Positions 1,515-22,040 of a stretch of DNA of 22,467 nt are shown here, piece by piece. The stretch lies in NCBI GenBank assembly GCA_964534375.1, contig CAZHPN010000093.1:1-22467 (forward strand), written 5' to 3'. The notes below the pieces were generated by a model, which was given only the letters and a program-made list of their open reading frames with translations, was not told where the DNA came from and searched no databases. The position numbers and the translations under genes were made by a program. The DNA is from an uncultured bacterium (GTDB lineage Bacteria > Lernaellota > Lernaellaia > Lernaellales > Lernaellaceae). Numbering within the stretch: the first letter of the stretch is position 1; each line of letters starts with the position of its first letter.

Positions 1515-2195
1515 ATGACCTTGAGACACGGTTCTTTCGCCCTGGTTCTCGCCGCAATCATCCTGGCCGCGTGCACGGTGAAGCCGTTGCTCTTCGCGGC
1601 GCCATCAACCACGGATGCATCGAAGGACGGCGCGGCGGTTCCCGCGAATGCGCCGACGATCAATCCGCTGAAGGTCGGCGACGCCGTGCCGGCCGTGGTG
1701 GTGCAAACGGCGGACGGCCAGCCGCTCGACCTGCGGGCCGCCGTCGCGAACAAGCCGGCGATTCTGCTCTTCTACCTCGGCCATTGGTGAGGCAGTTGCA
1801 TGCGCCAACTAGGTCAGTTGGCAAAAGACCAGCCCGAATACGACAAGCTCGGCGTCCAGATTTTCGGCACGTGCCCCGAACGTCCTGAAGTGCTCAAACG
1901 AACGGTCACCAAACTCAACCTTGCCTATCAATTGCTTTCCGACCCCGAAGGGAAACTGATGCGCGCGTTCGGCGTCGCGCACCGGATCAGCGACGACGAA
2001 TTCGCGCAATTCAAGTCCGCCGGCAAGGATCTGGAAGGCGATTCCGGCTTCAAGCACCACCTGCTGCCGATTCACGCGGTTTACCTCCTCGGAACCGACG
2101 GCAAGGTGAAGTACGCGATGCCCGTCACCGACGAAAGCAAACACATCGACTTCAAAGCTTTGATGGACGCGGCGAAGGCGGCGGTGGGCAAGTAG
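1515..2195 (+). CDS. Selenocysteine-containing AhpC/TSA (peroxiredoxin-like, thioredoxin-fold) lipoprotein, 226 aa, UGA-Sec at 1788-1790
   Basis: ORFs 1515-1790 and 1800-2195 are in the same frame. Read-through gives LKVGDAVP...ILLFYLGHW-U-GSC-MRQLGQL...LLSDPEGKLMRAFGV...LPIHAVYLLGTDGKVKY, so the TGA occupies the first Cys of the WCxxC redox motif. The N-terminus has a hydrophobic signal with an LAAC lipobox, and a hairpin follows the TGA. Confidence 0.88.
1804..1822 (+). promoter_or_regulatory. Putative bacterial SECIS element
   Basis: Perfect 7-bp stem GCCAACT/AGTTGGC with loop AGGTC, starting 13 nt after the TGA. The GGUC-containing apical loop resembles the E. coli fdhF SECIS loop. Confidence 0.75.
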
Positions 2196-2373: not shown

Positions 2374-4329
2374 ATGACCGAAGCGTCGCCCCGCGCAGAA
2401 CAATTAGACGAAACGCCCGCGCCAACAGCGGCGCCGCAGCTTGCCATCGACGAGACCTTCGATTTCGTGGAGTTCGATGAGAAGTCCGCGCCGCGGCTGT
2501 CGCGGTGGTTCTGGGTGCAGTGGTGCGTCCTGCTGGGGGTCGGCTTCGGCATGCTGTCGGTGCTCGAAGGCGGTTTCGACAACGTCCGCGAATACGGCTG
2601 GACGGAAGCCGGCGTCAACAAGATTCTCCTCTTCAGCCACACCGAAACGATCTTCGGTCTCGCCCTGCTCGCGCTGCTGCCGCTGGCGATTTTCCTCGTG
2701 CTGGGCCTGGAAGACGTCCTGTGGCGGCCGTTCGCGCGCCTCGCCGCCTGGCTGCGCCCGGCCTCGCGACGCCGCGCGGCGCTGCTGGTTCTCGTGCTGG
2801 CGGCTGGCGGCGCGATCGTCGCCGGTTCGCAATGGATGCTGGCGAAGCGGCCGGTGACCGACGACGAAAACGTCTATCTGTTCCAGACCCGAATCCTGGC
2901 GAAGGGCTGGCTGACCCTGCCCAGCCTGCCCGATCAGGAACCGCTGCACGATCGCCTGTTCGAGGACAACATCTTTCTGGTCAACAACGGCAAAATCTTC
3001 GGCCAATATCCCTTCGGCCAGAGCCTCATGCTCCTGCCCGGTTATCTGCTCGGCTGGGCGCACCTGACGCCGCTGCTCTTCGCGTTGGCCGCGATCTTCG
3101 GCATGTACGCGTTGGTCGGGCGCCTCTACGGCCCGAATTGGGGACTCGTCGGAGCGGCGTTGCTGGCGGTCAGTCCGACTTTTCTCGCGACCTCGGCGAC
3201 GCTGCTGTCGCACACGTCGACCTTGTGTTTTCTCGTCTGGTTTCTGTATTTCGCGCATCGCACGTGGAAAGACCCGGCGTGGTGGACGGCGATTCCGGCC
3301 GGCCTGTTTTTCCTGTTGGCGTTCCAGGTGCGCTCGGCGACGACGCTGCTGGCGGCCGGCCCGGTCGGCCTGGCGTTGGCGGTCGCCCTGTTGCGCGACG
3401 CCAAACGGCAGTGGCGCAAGATCGCCTGGCTGGCCGCGTTCGTCATCCTCGCGATCGGGATATCGCTGTGGCTGAACCAGCACGTCAACGGCGATCCGTT
3501 CAAGACGAACTACCACGCGGCGTGGGGCGAAGGCCGAACGCCGTTCAAGCACCCGTTCGGTTTCGAGAAAGGCGCGTGGCACCTGATCCACACGCCGGCG
3601 CAAGGCCTCTGGAACGCGCTCGACAACCTGCTGCGCCTGAATTGGTGGATGCTCGGCTGGCCGATCAGCCTGATTTTCGTTCTTGCCTGGCTGCTGCGGC
3701 GCGACAAGCTGGCCGAGGAGTGGGCGGCCTTCGCGGGCGTCGGCATGACCTTTTTCGCGTACTATTTCTATTTCTGGCCGGGCGTCGCCGACACGGGGCC
3801 GGTCTTGTATTACGAACTGATCGCCGTACTGATTCCGCTGACGATCAGCGGCCTGATCGCCGCTCCGCGGCTGCTGCTGCCCTGGATGCCGCGGCCGCTC
3901 GCGGCGCGCCGCACGGCCTTGTTCGTCGTGTTTTCGACGCTCATCGCCTTTGCGACCTTCCACCAGTTCGAAGTGCGCGGCCTGAACCACGTCGCAGGCC
4001 GCGTCGGCCAATTGGACGACGTGCTCGAACGCTTCGACGTGCCGGCGAACGCGGTGGTGTTCACGAATTACTATTTGAAAATCGCCGGCGAGAAGAATTT
4101 CCAGGACAGTTGGGTGGTCGGCCGGCCGTTCACCAGCCGGCTGCTCGACGATCCGCGGCTCTTTTATATCAACTATGGGCGGACGCGCGATGACGAATTT
4201 CTCGCCAAATATCACCCCGGCCGGCCGGCGTATGTGGTCGTCTGGACCGACGCCGGTTCGCCCAGCGTGATGAAATTGTCGGACTATCAAGTCGCCGCGA
4301 TGCCCGACAATTTGCCCGATTCGCGATGA
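2374..4329 (+). CDS. Multi-pass membrane GT-C fold glycosyltransferase (ArnT/PMT-like)
   Basis: More than 10 hydrophobic segments; acidic 'VTDDENVY' motif after an N-terminal TM; 'YPFG', 'LLAVSPTF', 'LLSHT' segments; extracytoplasmic C-terminal domain. Confidence 0.7.
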   Translation: MTEASPRAEQLDETPAPTAAPQLAIDETFDFVEFDEKSAPRLSRWFWVQWCVLLGVGFGMLSVLEGGFDNVREYGWTEAGVNKILLFSHTETIFGLALLALLPLAIFLVLGLEDVLWRPFARLAAWLRPASRRRAALLVLVLAAGGAIVAGSQWMLAKRPVTDDENVYLFQTRILAKGWLTLPSLPDQEPLHDRLFEDNIFLVNNGKIFGQYPFGQSLMLLPGYLLGWAHLTPLLFALAAIFGMYALVGRLYGPNWGLVGAALLAVSPTFLATSATLLSHTSTLCFLVWFLYFAHRTWKDPAWWTAIPAGLFFLLAFQVRSATTLLAAGPVGLALAVALLRDAKRQWRKIAWLAAFVILAIGISLWLNQHVNGDPFKTNYHAAWGEGRTPFKHPFGFEKGAWHLIHTPAQGLWNALDNLLRLNWWMLGWPISLIFVLAWLLRRDKLAEEWAAFAGVGMTFFAYYFYFWPGVADTGPVLYYELIAVLIPLTISGLIAAPRLLLPWMPRPLAARRTALFVVFSTLIAFATFHQFEVRGLNHVAGRVGQLDDVLERFDVPANAVVFTNYYLKIAGEKNFQDSWVVGRPFTSRLLDDPRLFYINYGRTRDDEFLAKYHPGRPAYVVVWTDAGSPSVMKLSDYQVAAMPDNLPDSR

Positions 4330-5198
4330 TGCGCCAGATTTGGAAATATCTCCTCGCGACGCGCCCGTTCGAATCGGCGCTGATGATCGGCTTTCCGCTG
4401 ATCGGCGCCTTGATCGGCCTGCGCGAGTGGACCGGCGTCGGCCGCCTCGTGCTGCATTTTTTCGTGGCCACCTATCCGCTGGTGATGTACGTCTATTGTC
4501 TCAATTCCTTCGGCGGCTTGTCTCACGACGCGATCAACGAACGGCTCTACGACAACCCGGCCGTGACCGGCGAAGTCAGCCCCAACGAACTGATCGGGCT
4601 GGCCTTCGGCGGCGCGTTCCTGTCGGGCCTGCTCTATTTCCTTTGGTTTCCGCGCTGTCTGGTGCCCTGGCTGTTGATCGTCATCAATTGGACCCTCTAC
4701 TCATACCCGCGCGTGTACGCCAAGGGCCGACCGATCGCCGGTTCGCTCGTCCATTTCATCGGCGGGGTGCTGCAATTCCTGCTCGGCTACGCCGCCACGC
4801 ACCCGCTGGACCGCGCCGGGTTGCTGCTCGGCGTTTATTTCGCCCTCGCCTTTGCCGCCGGCCATCTCAACCACGAAGTCAAAGATTTCGAACCGGACCA
4901 GGCCGCCGGTTTGCACACCAACGCCGTTGCCTTCGGGCCGCGCCGCGTGTTTTCGGCCGCGTTCTTCATTTTTTTCGCCGCCTTCGTTTATCTGCTCTTT
5001 TTGAGTGTTTTCCGCGTCATCGCCTGGCGATATTCCTGGCCCTATTTGGCGATCTTTTTCCCGCACCTGCTCTTGCACATCCGCGCCACGGGGCGCCAAT
5101 GGACGGGTTACGATCGCACGTACCAGTTCGTTTATCGGGCGCTGTTTGTGCTGGCCGGCTTTGCGCTGGCCGGCGCGAAGTGGCTCACGGTGGCCTGA
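4326..5198 (+). CDS. UbiA-superfamily membrane prenyltransferase
   Basis: N-terminal 'ATRP', 'LNSFGGLSHDAIN...NPAVTGEVS', 'YSYPRVYAK', 'HEVKDFEPDQAAGLHTNAV' and about 8-9 TM helices. ATGA overlap with the upstream gene. Confidence 0.78.
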   Translation: MMRQIWKYLLATRPFESALMIGFPLIGALIGLREWTGVGRLVLHFFVATYPLVMYVYCLNSFGGLSHDAINERLYDNPAVTGEVSPNELIGLAFGGAFLSGLLYFLWFPRCLVPWLLIVINWTLYSYPRVYAKGRPIAGSLVHFIGGVLQFLLGYAATHPLDRAGLLLGVYFALAFAAGHLNHEVKDFEPDQAAGLHTNAVAFGPRRVFSAAFFIFFAAFVYLLFLSVFRVIAWRYSWPYLAIFFPHLLLHIRATGRQWTGYDRTYQFVYRALFVLAGFALAGAKWLTVA

Positions 5199-5211
5199 GG
5201 AGAAACCTCGG

Positions 5212-6321
5212 ATGAGTCTGCCGACGTACGAAGTCATTGTCATCGGCGCCGGCCCCTGCGGCGCGACGGCGGCCCGCGAAGTCGCGCTGGGCGGCCGCCG
5301 GGTTCTGCTGCTCGAACGCGACTCCTACCCCGGCGAAAACAACTCCTGCGGCGGCGGCCTCGGCTGTTTTTTGCAGAAGAAATTCGATCTGCCGGACCGC
5401 CTGATCCACAAGCGCGTGCGCGAGGTGCGGCTCGACCTGGGCTTTTTGACCAAAACCTACCGCGCCGACCAGCCCATATACATGTCGATCAAACGCACGG
5501 AGTTCGACAAGTTTCTGGCCGAGCGCGCCGTGGCGGCCGGGGCCGAGTTGCGGGTGCGCCAGACGGTTCTCGGCTACGACCCGCACCGCAAGATCGTCCG
5601 CGTTCTCGATCGCGACAGCGGCCGGCATTGGGAGGCGTCGGCCAAAATTGTGATTTTCGCCGACGGCGCTCGCAGCCTCGCCTGGCGCGAATGCGGCATC
5701 GGCGTCGATCCGCAACGCGACCCGCTGATCGGCATCGCCTACGAACTCGGCTGGCCCGGCAATCCGTGCGAGACGTTCGAGTTTTTCTTCGACGAGGCGA
5801 AATTGCCGTACGGCTATTTTTGGATCTTCCCGACAACTGACACATTGAACGTCGGCATCGGCGGGCCGGTCCGTGACCTCGGCAAGCAAGCCAAGGGACT
5901 GCTGCAGCAGTTCATCGCGGAACGGCCCGAGTTGCGCGACCTCAAGCCCGTGCGCAAGACCGCCGGGTTCATTCCCGGCCATCTCGCGAACCGCCTGCAC
6001 GGCGACGGCGTGCTGGTCGTCGGCGACGCCGGCGGCTTCGTCAATCCGCTGACCGGCGGCGGCATTTACCTCGGCATGCTCGGGGCGCAAACGGCCGGCC
6101 AGGTCGCGGTCGCCGCGCTGCGCGAGGACCGCTGCGACAATCCGTCGCTCGCGCGCTATTCGCGGCGCATCAAAACCTCGCCGTATTGGGCAGGGCTGCA
6201 CGTCTTCCACGGCCTGGTGAAATGGAGTCAGGACCATCGGTTGCGAACGGGCAAACCGGTGCTGGGCAAGATTTTCAAGGTCTATTCGGATATTGGCGAC
6301 TTCGCGCTGCGCAGATTGTGA
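5212..6321 (+). CDS. Geranylgeranyl reductase family FAD-dependent oxidoreductase
   Basis: VIVIGAGPCG, CGGG, RTEFDKFL, ADGARS, GYFWIFP, NVGIG, VGDAGGFVNPLTGGGI. GAGGAG RBS precedes ATG 5212; the ORF track's upstream extension overlaps the UbiA gene. Confidence 0.88.
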   Translation: MSLPTYEVIVIGAGPCGATAAREVALGGRRVLLLERDSYPGENNSCGGGLGCFLQKKFDLPDRLIHKRVREVRLDLGFLTKTYRADQPIYMSIKRTEFDKFLAERAVAAGAELRVRQTVLGYDPHRKIVRVLDRDSGRHWEASAKIVIFADGARSLAWRECGIGVDPQRDPLIGIAYELGWPGNPCETFEFFFDEAKLPYGYFWIFPTTDTLNVGIGGPVRDLGKQAKGLLQQFIAERPELRDLKPVRKTAGFIPGHLANRLHGDGVLVVGDAGGFVNPLTGGGIYLGMLGAQTAGQVAVAALREDRCDNPSLARYSRRIKTSPYWAGLHVFHGLVKWSQDHRLRTGKPVLGKIFKVYSDIGDFALRRL

Positions 6322-9775: not shown

Positions 9776-10426
9776 CTAGCAGGCGTTCATGCAGTTGATC
9801 AGGGCTGTCGCCTGCGCCTGCGTCGGCGGGCTGGAGCACGGGTTGCTGCTCACGCACGTGGCGAAGCAGGACCAGTTGTCCGTGGTGTCGCTCGAGCAAT
9901 ACGCCATTTCGTCCATGAGCGGCACGTAGTAGTTCGTGTTTTGTTGGAACGTGAACGCGACGCCGCACGAGTAGAGTGCGTAAGCCGTGTGGCCGCAGCC
10001 CGAGCCGGGATCGGCCGGCTGCAAGCAGGCCGTGAAGCAACTCTTCGAACAGGATTGCGCGACGGCGCAATTATCCATGCAGTTCCAGAACGGGTCGGCC
10101 CCGCCGTTGAACATCTGGTCGCAATCCTGGCACCACGTGACCATTTGGGCCTGTGTGACCTGATTGCCCTGGTCGTCATTCAACGTGACTTGGCAGGTCC
10201 CGACGACGTCTTGCGCCACGGTGGTGCAATCGGTGGGGGCGTTGTCATCGTCATTGTCGTCGTCGTCGTCGCCGGAATTGTCGTCATCGTCGTCGGCAGC
10301 CGGCGAGGCGTCGTCGTCGGGGATGACCGTGCTGGTCGTCGTCGTGGTGGTCGTACAGCACACGATGATCGCGCCGAGCAACGCGAGGAGCCCGGCAAGC
10401 AGGAACGCCAAGAATTCGCGCCTCAT
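9776..10426 (-). CDS. Cys-rich exported protein/lipoprotein with Thr- and Asp-rich linker (216 aa)
   Basis: GGAGG-containing RBS; MRREF plus hydrophobic signal ending IIVCC; poly-T and poly-D linker; two Cys-rich helical units. Paralogous to 11082-11735. Confidence 0.8.
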   Translation of the reverse strand: MRREFLAFLLAGLLALLGAIIVCCTTTTTTTSTVIPDDDASPAADDDDDNSGDDDDDNDDDNAPTDCTTVAQDVVGTCQVTLNDDQGNQVTQAQMVTWCQDCDQMFNGGADPFWNCMDNCAVAQSCSKSCFTACLQPADPGSGCGHTAYALYSCGVAFTFQQNTNYYVPLMDEMAYCSSDTTDNWSCFATCVSSNPCSSPPTQAQATALINCMNAC

Positions 10427-10498
10427 TTCCTTCCTCCTGAAAAACGTTGAAACACAATGGCCGTCTAACATTTGCGCCGCGAATCGCGCGGTTTGGCG

Positions 10499-10528
10499 AC
10501 TGTAGACCGGCGGCTCGGTCGGCGTCAA
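10499..10528 (-). promoter_or_regulatory. Putative sigma70 promoter
   Basis: Minus strand TTGACG-N18-TACAGT upstream of the 10426 start. Confidence 0.4.
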
Positions 10529-10576
10529 CCGGCGGCCGAAATGTCGCAGGAAATCGAGAAGAGGAATGGAAAAACT

Positions 10577-10659
10577 CACGCGGAAACGCGGAGCGCGCCG
10601 AAAAACTGAGCGGCCGAGTCCAGTCCTCAGCCTTTCCGCGGTCGCTGCGTCTCCTCGTG
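10577..10659. repeat. Imperfect intergenic palindrome (REP-like)
   Basis: CACGCGGAAACGCGG...CTGAG...CTCAG...CTGCGTCTCCTCGTG arms are partly complementary. Confidence 0.45.
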
Positions 10660-10675
10660 GAATCCCGTCCGAAAA

Positions 10676-11023
10676 TCACACGCCCTTGAGCGCCTCGGCG
10701 AGGCAGTTCGCCATCGCGTCGCAGTTGCCGGCGTTGTCGTCGATGCACTGGGCGAAGGCGCCGTCGGGGCCGTAGCCCGCCTGGTTCTGCGCGCAGGCCG
10801 TCAGAACGCGTTCTTCCGGAAAGGCGACGCTGTTGTTGTCCTCGAACGAGAGGCCGCACCCGATGTACATCTGGTCGTAAATGGCGTGGCACACTTTGTC
10901 GTACGGACCCAGGACGCTGGCGGGCGGATAATACGTCGGCTTGTTGCTGGCCATGCACGCCGCGGCGAAGCCCGCCGCCACGATCAACAAAATCGCCGCC
11001 AACCGGAATTTCTTGCTGTACAT
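10676..11023 (-). CDS. Small Cys-rich lipoprotein (115 aa)
   Basis: AAGGGGTG RBS-like sequence; MYSKKFR plus hydrophobic stretch and AAAC lipobox; 6 Cys in the mature domain. Confidence 0.75.
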   Translation of the reverse strand: MYSKKFRLAAILLIVAAGFAAACMASNKPTYYPPASVLGPYDKVCHAIYDQMYIGCGLSFEDNNSVAFPEERVLTACAQNQAGYGPDGAFAQCIDDNAGNCDAMANCLAEALKGV

Positions 11024-11081
11024 GCTCACCCCTTCGCGCGGCGTCCGCGCCGGGGCCGTCGGGCCCCGCAAGACGCGGCGA

Positions 11082-11735
11082 CTAGCACTTCGTGACGCAC
11101 GCGACCATCGCCTGAGTTTGCGCGGACGTCGGCGGCGAGGAACACGTTACGGTGGACGTGCAATTGGCCAAGCATGACCAATTCAACGTCGTCATCGTCG
11201 GGCACGCCGCCTGCAGGTCCATTTCCAGGATGTAATACTTGAGATGGGCGGGGAACGGAATCTCCACGCCGCACGCGTACATCAGGTGCGCCGTGTGATT
11301 GCAGCCCGTGCCGCCGGGATCGCCCGGTTGCAGGCACGCCGTAAAGCAAGCCGCGCTGCACGCCGTATCCACCGCGCAATTGCCCAGGCAGTCCCATGCC
11401 GGGGATTTCACCTTGTCGAACAGTTCCTCGGAATAGCCGCACCATTCGGCGCCGTCGAGGGCGTCCGCCGGCGTGCCGTTCGTCTCGGGCAACACGAGCT
11501 TGCAAACGCCGATCGCCTTCGCCGCGATCTGCAGGCAGTTGAGGTCGGCCGCGTCGTCGTCGTCATCGCTCGGCGATTGATCGTCGTCCGCCGGCGAGGA
11601 ATCGTCGTCGGCCGGGGATTCGTCGTCATCCCCCGGCGCCGGGCTGCTCTTGCTGCTGGACTTGCCGCAGGCCAGCGCCACGCAGATCGCCAGCGCCGCC
11701 AGCGCCAGCACTGTCAATAAATATGGCCGTTTCAT
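11082..11735 (-). CDS. Cys-rich lipoprotein with Asp-rich linker (217 aa)
   Basis: GGAG RBS; MKRPY plus hydrophobic stretch and ALAC lipobox; DDxSPA repeats; shares W.C..NCAV...CS..CFTACLQP.DPG with 9776-10426. Confidence 0.82.
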   Translation of the reverse strand: MKRPYLLTVLALAALAICVALACGKSSSKSSPAPGDDDESPADDDSSPADDDQSPSDDDDDAADLNCLQIAAKAIGVCKLVLPETNGTPADALDGAEWCGYSEELFDKVKSPAWDCLGNCAVDTACSAACFTACLQPGDPGGTGCNHTAHLMYACGVEIPFPAHLKYYILEMDLQAACPTMTTLNWSCLANCTSTVTCSSPPTSAQTQAMVACVTKC

Positions 11736-11805
11736 GCTGTTTCTCCCGCAACACGATGGCGCTTTCACGCCCGCCTCGTCCACATTTCTCGGCAATTCGC
11801 GAGCG

Positions 11806-14229: not shown

Positions 14230-15861
14230 TCACGGACGCCGCTCGTAGATCGTGTAACCGGCCGCGCCGTGCGCCGGCGCATACCGCGCGCTCAGCCACG
14301 CGCGCAGCCGCGCCTCGAATTCGTCGACGGCGGCGCGGTCCGCCGGATCGAAAGAAAATTGGTTGCGGTTCGCCGTGATCCGGATGAAAAACCGCGGCGG
14401 CGCGGCCGCAAGCTGTTTCAGGAAGTCGTCTTGCAGCCCTTTGACATAGGCGCTGCTCGGATGCACGTAAAACTGATAATCGACATAGTACCGTGTCGCC
14501 GTGTCGATCTGCGCCCGCCACGCCGCGTCCGTTCCGCCGCCGAACCAATCCATGAACTGCGCCGCGTCGCCCGGCGCGGCGCGCTCCTTGAGATATGCCG
14601 CGATCTCCCGCGGCCGCGCCCCCATGCATTGCTGCGGCGGACGGCCGGCCGCTTGCCGCACGAACGAACGCGGCCACAACGCCGCCGAACCCAGCAATAT
14701 CGGCAGCAGCACGGCCAGCGGCGCCCAGCGCTTGAACGCCGGCAGGCCGGCCGCCGGTTCGAACCCCGCGCCAAACGCGGCGAGCAGCGTCAGGAAATAT
14801 CCCAGCGGCAGCCAGACGTACGGGTGCGGCTGGCCGACCAGCACGACCGTCAGCGCGAAGATCGCCGCGCCGGCGAGCGCGAGCCCCACGACGCCGCGGC
14901 GTTGCGAATCCGCCGCCGACATCCGCCAGACCTTCCACAACCCGATCGCGGCCGGCGCCGACAGAAAGAGCCACGGCAGCGGGAAACGTTTCGGCAGCAT
15001 TTCGAAGCGCATTTTCCAGGCCTTCGCGCCCGGCGCATACAGGAACGCCGCCTTCTCGACGAACATGTGCGTGTGATACGGCCACCAGTGGCGGGCCATT
15101 TCGAGAAAGGCGTCCAGACCGCCGATGGCCCAGAGCCACAGCCCGCAAACGGCCAGCGGCGCCGCAAAACCGAGCGCCATCCCCGCCGCGCGCGGCGCGC
15201 CGAAACCGAACGCCGCGCGCACATTCGTCCGTGCATCCGGCCGGCGCCAGAATTCGAAACCGAGCAGCGCGCCGAGCCACAGCACGGCCTGCGGCTTGAG
15301 CGACGCGCCGAGCCCGACGAGCGCGCCCATCGCCGCGCCACGCAGCCACGGCCGTTTCTCGAACAGCGCAGAACCGGCGACGAGCGTCGCCCAGACGATC
15401 GGCAGAATCAGCAGATGGTCGCGCTGCAAGGTCACATATTCGCCGCGGGCGAAATACAGCCACGGGTAAAAAATCGCGCCCAGCCACCGGACGCGCCAAT
15501 CGAAGCGGCGCAGCAGCCGCGCGGTCGAAGCCGCAAGCGCCGCGAGAAACAGCAGATCGAACAGGCGCGCGCCGGCGTCGGTATAGCCGAACACGCGCGT
15601 CAGCAACGAGTGCAAAAGCATCGTCCCCGGCATGTTCGGATCGAAAATGTCGCGATAGGGCACGCGTCCCATTTTGTTGATGAGGAAGCCCAGATAATTC
15701 ATATCCAGGGCGTCCCAGCACAAATCCCAGCGCAGGGAATACGCGGCGACGACGAGCAGCAGGCCGCTCAGCAACACCAGGATCGGAACCAGCGGCAGGT
15801 CCCAATTTTCCAGGCGGCGCCGGGGCGGCAAAGGGGGATCAGGCGGGCGGCTTTGCGTCAT
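14230..15861 (-). CDS. Multi-pass membrane GT-C-type glycosyltransferase
   Basis: WDALDMNY...GRVPYRDIFDPNMPG loop after the first TM, 'LQRD', 'LKPQ', many TM segments and a periplasmic C-terminal domain. Immediately downstream of a GtrB-like GT2. Confidence 0.7.
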   Translation of the reverse strand: MTQSRPPDPPLPPRRRLENWDLPLVPILVLLSGLLLVVAAYSLRWDLCWDALDMNYLGFLINKMGRVPYRDIFDPNMPGTMLLHSLLTRVFGYTDAGARLFDLLFLAALAASTARLLRRFDWRVRWLGAIFYPWLYFARGEYVTLQRDHLLILPIVWATLVAGSALFEKRPWLRGAAMGALVGLGASLKPQAVLWLGALLGFEFWRRPDARTNVRAAFGFGAPRAAGMALGFAAPLAVCGLWLWAIGGLDAFLEMARHWWPYHTHMFVEKAAFLYAPGAKAWKMRFEMLPKRFPLPWLFLSAPAAIGLWKVWRMSAADSQRRGVVGLALAGAAIFALTVVLVGQPHPYVWLPLGYFLTLLAAFGAGFEPAAGLPAFKRWAPLAVLLPILLGSAALWPRSFVRQAAGRPPQQCMGARPREIAAYLKERAAPGDAAQFMDWFGGGTDAAWRAQIDTATRYYVDYQFYVHPSSAYVKGLQDDFLKQLAAAPPRFFIRITANRNQFSFDPADRAAVDEFEARLRAWLSARYAPAHGAAGYTIYERRP

Positions 15862-16813
15862 CCGGGAAATTGATCCTCTCGCGCTCGATCACGAGCGGCC
15901 GCTTGCGCACCTGGGACTGGATCGCGCTGATGTACTCGCCGAAAACGCCGAGAAAGAAGAGCTGCACGCCGGAGAAGAAGAACAGCGCCGTCAGCAGGGT
16001 CGGGATGCCGGCCGGCGCCAACTTGCGGTAGAAGATCAGGTTCACGGCCGCCGTGAAAATCGCGTAGAGGATGCTGAGGCCGGAAAGGATCAGCCCGAAA
16101 AACAGCGCCAAGCGCAACGGCACGTTGGAAAACGAAATCAGCCCGTTGATCGCCTGGTCGATCAGATCGTACAGGCGGTTTTTCGACAGCCCCTTCTTGC
16201 GCGCCTTCCACGTGTACGGCACGCCGACCGAACGGAAGCCGCAACTGGCGATCATCCCGCGGATATACGGATAATAATCGTCGAATTTGCGCAGGGCGTC
16301 GACCACCACCTTGTCGATCAACTGGAACTCGGCCACATCCGGCGGAATATGGATATCCGTAATGCGCTGCACGGTGCGATAATACGCGTGGCGCACGCCG
16401 CGCATGAGCGCGCCCTCTTCCCGGTTGGCGCGGATGCCGTAAACGATCTCGTGCCCGGCCTCCCATTGGCGGACGAACTCGACGATCACCTCGGCCGGGT
16501 CCTGCAAATCCGCCGCGAACAGCGGCACCACCGCGTCGCCGGTCGTCGCCAGCAGGCCGTTGAACGTCGAACGAAACGGCCCGAAATTGCGGGCGTTGAC
16601 GATCACCTTCACGCGCGGATCCGCCGCCGCCATCTTCCGCAGAATGGCGACCGTGTCGTCGGCGGACGCGTTGTCGCAAAAAATCTGCTCGTGATCGTAT
16701 TCCGGCAGGCGCTTCTCGAACAGCTCGACGATCGCCCGGCGGCAATCTTCGACGTTGAGCGACTCGTTGTACGTCGGCGTCACAATGGTGATCAGCTTCC
16801 GCTTTTCCGCCAT
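15839..16813 (-). CDS. GT2 polyprenyl-phosphate glycosyltransferase (GtrB/ArnC-like)
   Basis: IVTPTYNE, DNASADDT, RNFG, ADLQDP, two C-terminal TM helices and LGVFGEYI...RP. Confidence 0.9.
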   Translation of the reverse strand: MAEKRKLITIVTPTYNESLNVEDCRRAIVELFEKRLPEYDHEQIFCDNASADDTVAILRKMAAADPRVKVIVNARNFGPFRSTFNGLLATTGDAVVPLFAADLQDPAEVIVEFVRQWEAGHEIVYGIRANREEGALMRGVRHAYYRTVQRITDIHIPPDVAEFQLIDKVVVDALRKFDDYYPYIRGMIASCGFRSVGVPYTWKARKKGLSKNRLYDLIDQAINGLISFSNVPLRLALFFGLILSGLSILYAIFTAAVNLIFYRKLAPAGIPTLLTALFFFSGVQLFFLGVFGEYISAIQSQVRKRPLVIERERINFPDDAKPPA

Positions 16814-19635: not shown

Positions 19636-21960
<2,325 letters not shown>

Positions 21961-22024
21961 GGCGGTCCCTCCAACATCGGCACATTTACATTTACGAACG
22001 GCATATTGCTTATTTTTTTGTGCG

Positions 22025-22040
22025 TGCATTTTTCATGCCA
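22025..22040 (-). promoter_or_regulatory. Sigma54 (-24/-12) promoter
   Basis: Minus strand TGGCATG-AAAA-ATGCA with exact GG-N10-GC spacing, about 65 nt upstream of ATG 21960. Confidence 0.7.

Follow-up and report, generated by a model that had tools for sequence, protein, structure and literature searches.

The stretch of DNA analysed here (the window) comprises the 22,467 nucleotides of contig CAZHPN010000093.1 (assembly GCA_964534375.1) from an uncultured bacterium of the phylum Lernaellota. At 1515-2195 of its forward strand lie two short open reading frames (ORFs) that share one frame and are separated by a single TGA codon: an upstream ORF of 91 amino acids (1515-1790, +) that ends at the TGA at 1788-1790, and a downstream ORF of 131 amino acids (1800-2195, +) that begins with an ATG. 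A first-pass annotation had read these as one gene for an exported, membrane-anchored protein with selenocysteine (Sec, U) in a UxxC active site, which standard annotation would split. We find it very probable that 1515-2195 is a single gene for an exported UxxC selenoprotein of the peroxiredoxin (Prx)-like, CxxC-type AhpC/TSA thioredoxin-fold family. This reading, in which the 226-amino acid product is probably lipid-anchored, draws its support from the Cys column of the homologues, the sel genes of the genome, a selenocysteine insertion sequence (SECIS) hairpin and independent assemblies. The two short frames are one mis-split selenoprotein gene and a rather divergent new member of an already known predicted family.

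The reading frame and how annotation splits it

The TGA at 1788-1790 is the sole interruption of a 226-codon frame (1515-2195, +) that ends with a TAG stop at 2193-2195 and remains open for 134 codons 3' of the TGA. A Shine-Dalgarno-like GGAGGA (1502-1507, +) is evident from the sequence 7 nt 5' of the ATG at 1515. Reading the TGA as Sec yields a 226-amino acid protein containing ...KPAILLFYLGHW-U-GSC-MRQLGQLAKD..., with the local motif FYLGHW-U-GSC just as it had been described. The UGA is assigned to Sec at residue 92 (1788-1790, +), the first position of a U-G-S-C redox motif, on the basis of the Cys column, a TGA-containing orthologue and metagenome forms presented below. The codon for Cys95, the proposed resolving partner of Sec92, follows at 1797-1799 (+) and is identified by an invariant column and by a PDB profile alignment to 2cx3. 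Frame, Pfam matches and alignment all delimit the same complete gene. The Pfam AhpC-TSA domain spans the TGA (residues 54-200, E 8.9e-23, 81 bits against a cut-off of 26), as does a Redoxin match (residues 53-159), and neither half of the split gene contains a complete AhpC-TSA domain, in agreement with the earlier statement that neither half is a complete fold.

The same note had also held that the second half has no ribosome-binding site, which proved incorrect since a GAGG at 1789-1792, overlapping the TGA, stands 7 nt upstream of the ATG at 1800. It is probably because of this GAGG that gene callers begin the gene at ATG 1800. Indeed, a large public protein collection contains the second half as the called protein P0002 (131 amino acids, 100% identity) and no full-length form of the 226-amino acid protein. 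Standard gene calling therefore really does split this gene, and the correction to be made is that the real product is very probably a 226-amino acid selenoprotein of which public data hold only the 131-amino acid tail. The description of the gene as hidden is thus apt for gene callers, and not for the literature, where the family figures in published selenoprotein lists.

Cysteine and selenocysteine forms among homologues

Our main alignment consists of 12 rows, the window protein and 11 full-length homologues with 32-42% identity. Both the TGA column and residue 95 are Cys in all 11 homologues (W-C-x-x-C), and every invariant column of the alignment is preserved in the window protein on either side of the TGA. 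Family-invariant features include PLKVG (51-55), SD (142-143), K167, HHLLP (181-185) and D206. The window protein departs from its homologues in having G-S between its two redox residues, where they have P-Y or another pair, and in having Cys120 in place of the Ser found in 11/11. Cys120 (codon 1872-1874) is the third Cys of the mature domain, lies in an S-P-D motif after strand 115-120, and could act as an extra resolving residue.

A genome scan with the homologue alignment, using one genome per species, confirmed 559 relatives. Among the best 80 loci the TGA column is Cys in all 80 (52 TGC, 28 TGT), a count biased against Sec forms as one seed pattern of the scan included the Cys codon. The question of whether Cys aligns to the TGA, raised as a check in the earlier note, can thus be answered in the affirmative. 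Within the phylum, the family is present at E <= 1e-15 in 3 of 17 genomes, namely the source genome (G000), G016 and G009. The G016 orthologue (41% identity) has GGW-TGA-PYC at the same column, and G009 has the Cys form FYRGGWCPYC. We found selA in 14/17 genomes, the source genome and G016 among them but not G009. The distribution of the two forms thus tracks that of the Sec machinery. The frame of the G016 orthologue (L023) loses its family likeness after ...PAAFIVDKK, at about nucleotide 2030 of the locus, and its match covers only query residues 10-193; this 3' end may reflect a frameshift or assembly error.

We also scanned metagenomes for FYRGGW codons followed by TGA and obtained at least 120 such stretches. 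Among the 120 listed, 100 read through into homologues of the window protein (phmmer E <= 1e-3), which indicates that predicted Sec forms of the Prx-like family are common in environmental DNA. The listed stretches that score at least 88 bits and have enough sequence after the TGA, 46 in number, are referred to below as close Sec forms.

A SECIS element downstream of the TGA

Folding of the sequence 3' of the TGA, with reference to published bacterial SECIS (bSECIS) criteria and to relatives of the gene, revealed a SECIS hairpin at 1804-1822 (+). This hairpin begins 13 nt after the TGA and has a 7-bp stem (GCCAACU/AGUUGGC), a 5-nt loop (AGGUC) and a free energy of -8.6 kcal/mol; the loop begins 20 nt after the UGA and has G at its second position, followed by another G. 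The bSECIS criteria given in the Fig. 2 legend of PMC13188914 are a loop of 3-9 nt, a stem of 4-16 bp, a G in the first two loop positions, a spacing of 16-37 nt and a minimum free energy <= -7.5 kcal/mol, and the hairpin falls within all of these as that legend words them.

Comparison among relatives distinguishes Sec from Cys forms. A stem of at least 7 bp with GG at the loop occurs in the same register in 44/46 close Sec forms, 13/53 distant Sec forms and 1/80 Cys forms, with Sec forms counted among the matches listed; with any loop allowed, the corresponding numbers are 44/46, 23/53 and 5/80. We further examined covariation in an ungapped alignment of 48 sequences, made up of the window, the G016 orthologue and the 46 metagenome forms, with 8 proposed pairs. 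Base pairing at these positions holds in 92.0% of cells, as against 23.7-46.3% when the partners are slid by 1-3 columns. Both partners vary in 5 of the 8 pairs (48 cells), as with CG/UA at columns 22-30 and GC/CG at columns 24-28. At 0.330, the covariation score exceeds the 0.142 of shuffled alignments, none of 500 shuffles reaching the observed value. The stem arms code for Q-L and Q/E-L about a Gly codon, so that it is synonymous codons that covary. By comparison, four Cys forms that also encode QLG[QE]L form stems of only 4-6 bp. Judged from these sequences, the coincidence of the TGA with an invariant Cys column and with a Sec-type hairpin downstream appears to be beyond chance.

Selenocysteine machinery and authenticity of the TGA

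The source genome is a metagenome bin of 6.3 Mb in 381 contigs, with 94% completeness and 3.6% contamination. A search for the genes selA, selB, selC and selD, one of the checks that the first-pass annotation had named, recovered all four: selA (586 bits), selB as two contig-end pieces that cover model positions 60-580 (218 bits) and 2-87 (134 bits), selD (353 bits, with one in-frame TGA) and the tRNA-Sec gene selC (78 bits; called SeC with anticodon tca by ARAGORN). The selD gene (L010, contig C112, TGA at locus nucleotide 1531) itself encodes a selenoprotein with the sequence SHGAG-U-ACK, and the hairpin after its TGA has a CGGGC loop, the same as the loop of the SECIS in the G016 orthologue. 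Sec-containing genes of the AhpC/TSA fold were also seen in two further genomes. One is a gene in G013 (L027, nucleotide 1645) that encodes U-P-Y-S (UxxS) and has a hairpin, GCAUCU-CGGGC-AGAUGC, at the equivalent offset; the other is a BCP-type peroxiredoxin with Sec in G022 (L026, nucleotide 1639) that encodes T-P-G-U (TxxU).

A sequencing error, with TGC or TGT as the true codon, would have undone the proposal. The codon at 1788-1790 is covered without a single difference by contigs of four independent assemblies from four studies, two derived from RNA libraries (X2 and X4) and two from DNA (X3 and X5), which largely excludes such an error; stretches of the window that some of these runs leave uncovered are not informative. 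One RNA-library contig crosses the TGA and extends from 1490 to 2128. The RNA-library contigs start at 1490 and 1506, and DNA contigs extend further upstream, a weak hint, though not proof, of a single transcript across the TGA.

Predicted export and lipid anchor

The N-terminus, MTLRHGSFALVLAAIILAAC, begins M-T-L-R-H, has Arg4 and hydrophobic residues at 8-19, and continues into I-L-A-A-C20. This segment (1515-1574, +) was recognized by pattern match as a signal peptide with a lipobox and with Cys20 (codon 1572-1574) as predicted lipid site, which confirms the LAAC lipobox pattern noted earlier. The rule applied was a PROSITE-like pattern that asks for a basic residue, a hydrophobic core and a Cys at 15-35, and the window protein fits it in all three respects. 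Genes for both enzymes of lipoprotein maturation are present in the source genome, with lgt at 143 and 123 bits and lspA at 117 and 115 bits, all above cut-offs. The window protein is thus probably exported and lipid-anchored.

A hydrophobic N-terminal segment is found in 30 of the 46 close Sec forms listed (15 lack it and 1 is too short) and in 68 of the 80 Cys forms, so export seems typical of the Prx-like family as far as such segments indicate. Lipobox-like matches were obtained for 1 Sec form and 14 Cys forms with this crude rule, applied to stop-to-stop frames.

Predicted fold and active site

An AlphaFold2 model built from the 12-row alignment has a mean predicted local distance difference test score (pLDDT) of 84.6 and a predicted template modelling score (pTM) of 0.77, and from residue 41 onward the pLDDT averages 84-97 over blocks of 10 residues. 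In this model residues 1-44 are unstructured and a compact alpha/beta domain begins at about residue 45, so that AlphaFold2 and Foldseek together place a BCP/AhpE-like thioredoxin-fold catalytic domain at residues 45-226 (1647-2192, +). Sec92 lies directly N-terminal to helix 93-111. The best Foldseek matches are BCP, AhpE and PrxQ peroxiredoxins, with ResA lower, all at 12-23% identity; Bcp4 (3hjp), for example, matches with E 8e-13 and a template modelling (TM) score of 0.91 on target.

A profile alignment to the BCP structure 2cx3 sets the family motif F-Y-R-G-G-W-C-P-Y-C over F-F-P-A-A-F-S-P-V-C. This places Sec92 in the Prx Ser/Thr column and Cys95 on the peroxidatic Cys, and the Prx Pro corresponds to an Arg of the family (Leu88 in the window protein). 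The catalytic Arg of 2cx3 and 3hjp aligns with a profile Pro (His187 in the window protein) in local alignments that are weak (4.0 and 12.1 bits). Canonical peroxiredoxin was considered as a classification and rejected, as the PxxxT/SxxC motif is absent and, judged from these weak local alignments, so is the catalytic Arg. With Sec92 on the Prx Thr/Ser and Cys95 on the peroxidatic Cys, the window protein is better described as a predicted CxxC-type Prx-like oxidoreductase that combines a Prx-like fold with a thioredoxin-like active site. Thus, the earlier description as peroxiredoxin-like with Sec at the WCxxC position is upheld for the AhpC/TSA thioredoxin fold but not in the sense of a canonical peroxiredoxin, given that the Prx Thr/Ser is Sec and that Pro and Arg are not conserved.

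Relation to known families and distribution of Sec forms

We presume that the family of the window protein is CDD cd02970 PRX_like2, which is probable and leans on the published label of a related UxxS form. That cd02970 UxxS form is also among the predicted selenoproteins listed in the relevant parts of PMC9312934 and PMC13188914; the window protein is UxxC and not UxxS, and the UxxS relative with an equivalent hairpin in the same phylum is the G013 gene described above. As to the UxxC form, Prx-like predicted selenoproteins have been in print since 2004-2005. A "Prx-like protein" with a thioredoxin-like UXXC motif was described from 22 Sargasso Sea sequences in the passage of PMC1088965 that deals with it, and a "Prx-like thiol:disulfide oxidoreductase" (PF00578, UxxC/UxxU) appears among the predicted selenoprotein families of PMC9312934 and PMC13188914 (Table 1 of the latter), where it is given as "predicted with high confidence". 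The window protein shares PF00578 and the UxxC motif with this family, to which it is matched by description, the published representative being WP_010940744.1. It differs in that the family motif R-G-G-W-C/U-P-Y-C is replaced by L-G-H-W-U-G-S-C and in having Cys120 and a lipobox. The relevant passages of the family literature make no mention of export of Prx-like selenoproteins, and the words "signal peptide", "periplasm" and "lipoprotein" are absent from the text of PMC13188914, although supplements of the family papers may list exported members. A search of the literature on selenocysteine and lipobox returned nothing relevant. Selenoproteins that are lipoproteins are nevertheless in print, as the available text on the SAO system describes SaoX and SaoC as Sec proteins with lipoprotein signal peptides whose database entries are truncated at the UGA (bioRxiv 10.1101/2022.07.06.499078). 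The window protein resembles these in being a predicted lipoprotein selenoprotein, whereas the folds and contexts, an ABC substrate-binding protein and a CC/CU C-terminal motif in that text, are unrelated.

The BCP/PrxQ and AhpE peroxiredoxins (2cx3, 3hjp, 1xvw) have the same fold (Foldseek E ~1e-12, TM up to 0.91 on target) with Cys95 on their peroxidatic Cys, but identity is 12-23% and the window protein has other residues in place of the Prx Pro, Thr/Ser and Arg. Additionally, these peroxiredoxins lack both the invariant HHLLP and an insertion of some 30 residues (~156-180) seen in the window protein. ResA, TlpA and CcmG are membrane-tethered extracytoplasmic thioredoxin-fold proteins with WCxxC, as is proposed for the window protein, and show a weak likeness to it by sequence (NF002854, E 2.3e-7; ResA chains) and structure (2h1b, 4nmu). 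In contrast to these proteins, the window protein is far under the family cut-offs, has Sec for the N-terminal Cys, and has no cytochrome c maturation genes among its neighbours.

To view the distribution of Sec forms we computed a FastTree phylogeny of 33 Sec and 81 Cys forms, restricted to rows of at least 150 residues (which dropped 15 of 48 Sec forms) and with G016 cut to 150. The Sec forms are scattered in this tree, with 10 Sec/Cys changes by parsimony of which at least 2 are forced by supported branches. The window protein sits on a long branch of uncertain position that is joined to another long branch, and it does not pair with the G016 orthologue. Resolution is low, with 43 of 111 inner branches open, and the tree allows no direction of Sec/Cys change, origin or donor to be named.

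Proposed mechanism and weighing of alternatives

Given the features described above, translation would start at ATG 1515, and the hairpin at 1804-1822 would recruit SelB with Sec-tRNA(Sec) such that Sec is inserted at the UGA at 1788-1790 as residue 92, after which translation would continue to the TAG at 2193. The signal peptide would then direct export of the 226-amino acid precursor, and Lgt and LspA would probably lipidate and cleave it at Cys20, export and lipidation both being read from the N-terminal pattern. A flexible linker of about 25 residues would hold the thioredoxin-fold domain at the membrane. Sec92, at the N-terminus of helix 93-111, would be the attacking nucleophile, and Cys95 would resolve the intermediate as a selenenylsulfide. 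On this view the protein would be a selenol/thiol oxidoreductase, tethered to the membrane on its extracytoplasmic side, whose catalytic cycle passes through a selenenylsulfide of Sec92 and Cys95. Its most likely substrates are extracytoplasmic disulfides, sulfenic acids or peroxides, and it may be recycled through a DsbD/CcdA-type conduit. Two DsbD_TM proteins in the source genome are possible electron conduits. Analogy alone suggests what the enzyme reduces, which way electrons flow and which partner recycles it.

A number of observations weigh against this reading. Computation establishes a single frame, a genuine TGA, the pairing of Sec with Cys in homologues, a SECIS, the Sec machinery and the fold, whereas selenium incorporation is a prediction. 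As regards the hairpin, the 66-nt region after the TGA is no more stable than its shuffles (z 0.12; 111 of 200 fold as well) and Rfam at gathering thresholds gave 0 matches in the whole window, so the case for a SECIS element rests on comparison and not on stability. Within that comparison, the number of pairs that change on both sides is matched by 69 of 500 shuffles and is not significant by itself, and the stem is located within a QLGQL coding stretch whose palindromic codons could partly mimic pairing. Each selB piece is under the family cut-off of 242 bits, and the sel genes are on contigs other than that of the window, in a 381-contig bin with an estimated 3.6% contamination. The Cys codon in the seed pattern skews the count of 80 Cys loci, and the RNA-library contigs are no proof of transcription. 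The lipobox is a pattern match only, and just 1 of the 30 listed Sec forms that have a hydrophobic N-terminus matches the rule. NCBIfam matches are all far under their cut-offs (thiol peroxidase, the best, 46 of 140 bits; SelL-related redox protein, 29 of 120; PrxU, 18 of 270). Finally, a Pfam scan of 100 of the 152 flanking ORFs, around 53 of the 80 Cys-form loci, detected no neighbour shared across lineages that could hint at a substrate.

Three alternatives would deny that a selenoprotein is made, and the strongest of them, which we still regard as very unlikely, is a pseudogene in which the Cys codon (TGC or TGT) of an ordinary Prx-like gene has mutated to TGA, leaving the gene dead or dying. 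Such a change requires a single base, Cys forms predominate among the family members found (80/80 loci), the gene is present at E <= 1e-15 in none of 7 same-family genomes, and the window protein is on a long tree branch (0.96). However, every invariant residue 3' of the TGA is retained in a frame open for 134 codons, a SECIS-type hairpin of a sort seen in 1 of 80 Cys forms occurs at the right distance, the TGA recurs at the same column in an orthologue and at least 100 metagenome relatives, the full Sec machinery is in the genome, and the identical sequence is present in four other assemblies. That last observation, with 0 differences at the codon among contigs from four other runs and four studies, also largely refutes an error of sequencing or assembly at 1788-1790 that hides a true Cys codon; the fragmented nature of the 381-contig metagenome bin speaks for such an error, which would leave the SECIS-specific arrangement of downstream codons unexplained and has in our view a negligible chance of being correct. 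Hardly more credible is the existence of two genes, a 91-amino acid exported peptide and a 131-amino acid cytoplasmic protein that starts at ATG 1800. The GAGG located 7 nt before this ATG and the 131-amino acid protein produced by the gene caller would fit two genes, but the Pfam domain and predicted fold require both halves, the active-site motif is divided between them, and no homologue found (124-396 amino acids) starts at the point of ATG 1800.

The other alternatives accept the same selenoprotein and assign it a different activity. The more probable of them, although we think it unlikely, is a peroxidase of the glutathione peroxidase-like or Prx-like kind, in which Sec92 is oxidized to a selenenic acid that is resolved by Cys95, and not a protein disulfide reductase. 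In glutathione peroxidases selenocysteine serves well as a nucleophile that reacts with peroxides; moreover, BCP, AhpE and PrxQ peroxidases give the best matches in both sequence and structure, and Cys95 falls on the peroxidatic Cys. Against a peroxidase, the positions of the Prx Pro, Thr/Ser and Arg are occupied by Leu88, Sec92 and His187 (the last by weak local alignment), the motif is a thioredoxin-like WCxxC, and ResA-type oxidoreductases match too. A role in metal handling, as in a Sco-like protein or a binder of copper or mercury that uses Sec92, Cys95 and the invariant His-His at 181-182, is considerably less probable. Sites that combine CxxC with His are soft-metal ligands in certain thioredoxin-fold proteins, Sco among them, and HHLLP is invariant in the family, but no metal-related neighbour is conserved and no Sco likeness was reported in Pfam, NCBIfam, PDB profile or Foldseek searches. 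A selenol/thiol oxidoreductase remains our preferred description of the window protein.

On a broader scale we raise, as a speculative and on balance doubtful proposal, that Sec forms of the Prx-like clade are mostly extracytoplasmic and represent a widespread, unstudied selenium-dependent envelope redox activity of soil and wetland bacteria; the window protein would then be a variant distinguished by a lipid anchor, an unusual U-G-S-C motif and the additional Cys120. If true, the thiol and peroxide chemistry of the envelope in these bacteria would hinge on the supply of selenium, with truncation at the UGA linking the redox capacity of the envelope to the selenium at hand. Knowledge of selenoproteins in general is unchanged, as published work already covers the family, its UxxC motif and selenoproteins that are lipoproteins. 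What the gene would add is a Sec-using envelope redox enzyme from an uncultured phylum about which little is known and where the Sec trait is widespread (selA in 14/17 genomes). Additionally, the Sec forms, at least 100 in number, together with a SECIS situated within a Q-L-G-Q/E-L coding stretch with covarying synonymous codons, could seed a search model for split genes of this family.

Gene neighbourhood and other features of the window

The neighbours of the gene in the window encode an SDR protein, a PMT_2 glycosyltransferase, UbiA, a geranylgeranyl-reductase-like protein, a rhamnose mutarotase, a DUF362/Fer4 protein, a B12-radical SAM protein, GT2, a transketolase, an epimerase and an Lcl_C protein, with no redox partner among them. 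The only synteny detected in the Pfam scan of 100 flanking ORFs around Cys-form loci is local to lineages (MscS and RlmN in Balneolaceae), along with a few neighbours that have a VTT domain or are pyridine-nucleotide-disulfide oxidoreductases.

It had been suggested that the selenoprotein services Cys-rich exported proteins encoded nearby. Cys-rich ORFs are indeed present on the reverse strand at 9776-10579 (-; 20 Cys in 267 amino acids), 10676-11071 (-; 7 Cys in 131), 11082-11795 (-; 20 Cys in 237) and 19636-22029 (-; 35 Cys in 797, with four Lcl_C domain matches). These genes are real, but they are on the opposite strand at a distance of 7.5 kb or more, and the 53 loci scanned have no conserved neighbour, so the suggestion finds no support. 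The three adjoining ORFs at 9776-11795 (-) contain 5-8% Cys and have no Pfam match, and at least two of them have signal-peptide-like N-termini. The gene at 19636-22029 (-) contains long trinucleotide or 18-21-nt repeats.

Directly 3' of the selenoprotein gene, 2374-6321 (+) encodes a 651-amino acid PMT_2-type membrane glycosyltransferase, a UbiA prenyltransferase and a geranylgeranyl-reductase-like flavoprotein, and resembles a cluster for polyprenyl lipids or for glycosylation. Another PMT_2 gene together with GT2 is located at 14230-16813 (-). Just past the stop codon of the selenoprotein gene, 2205-2297 contains heptamer arrays of CGGGAGT (x5.6) followed by TTCCGAC/TTCTGAC (x6.4), which fold together into a single hairpin, rich in G-U pairs and about 33 bp long (-69.2 kcal/mol, z -7.5, 0 of 200 shuffles). 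The RNA-library contigs stop just before this hairpin, at 2128 and 2202. Its 3' arm has a summed contig depth of 460-1750 in two DNA runs and 32-72 in two RNA-library runs, and the high depth indicates that the same repeat is present in many other contigs. The hairpin may be a terminator or a dispersed element resembling repetitive extragenic palindromic (REP) sequences.

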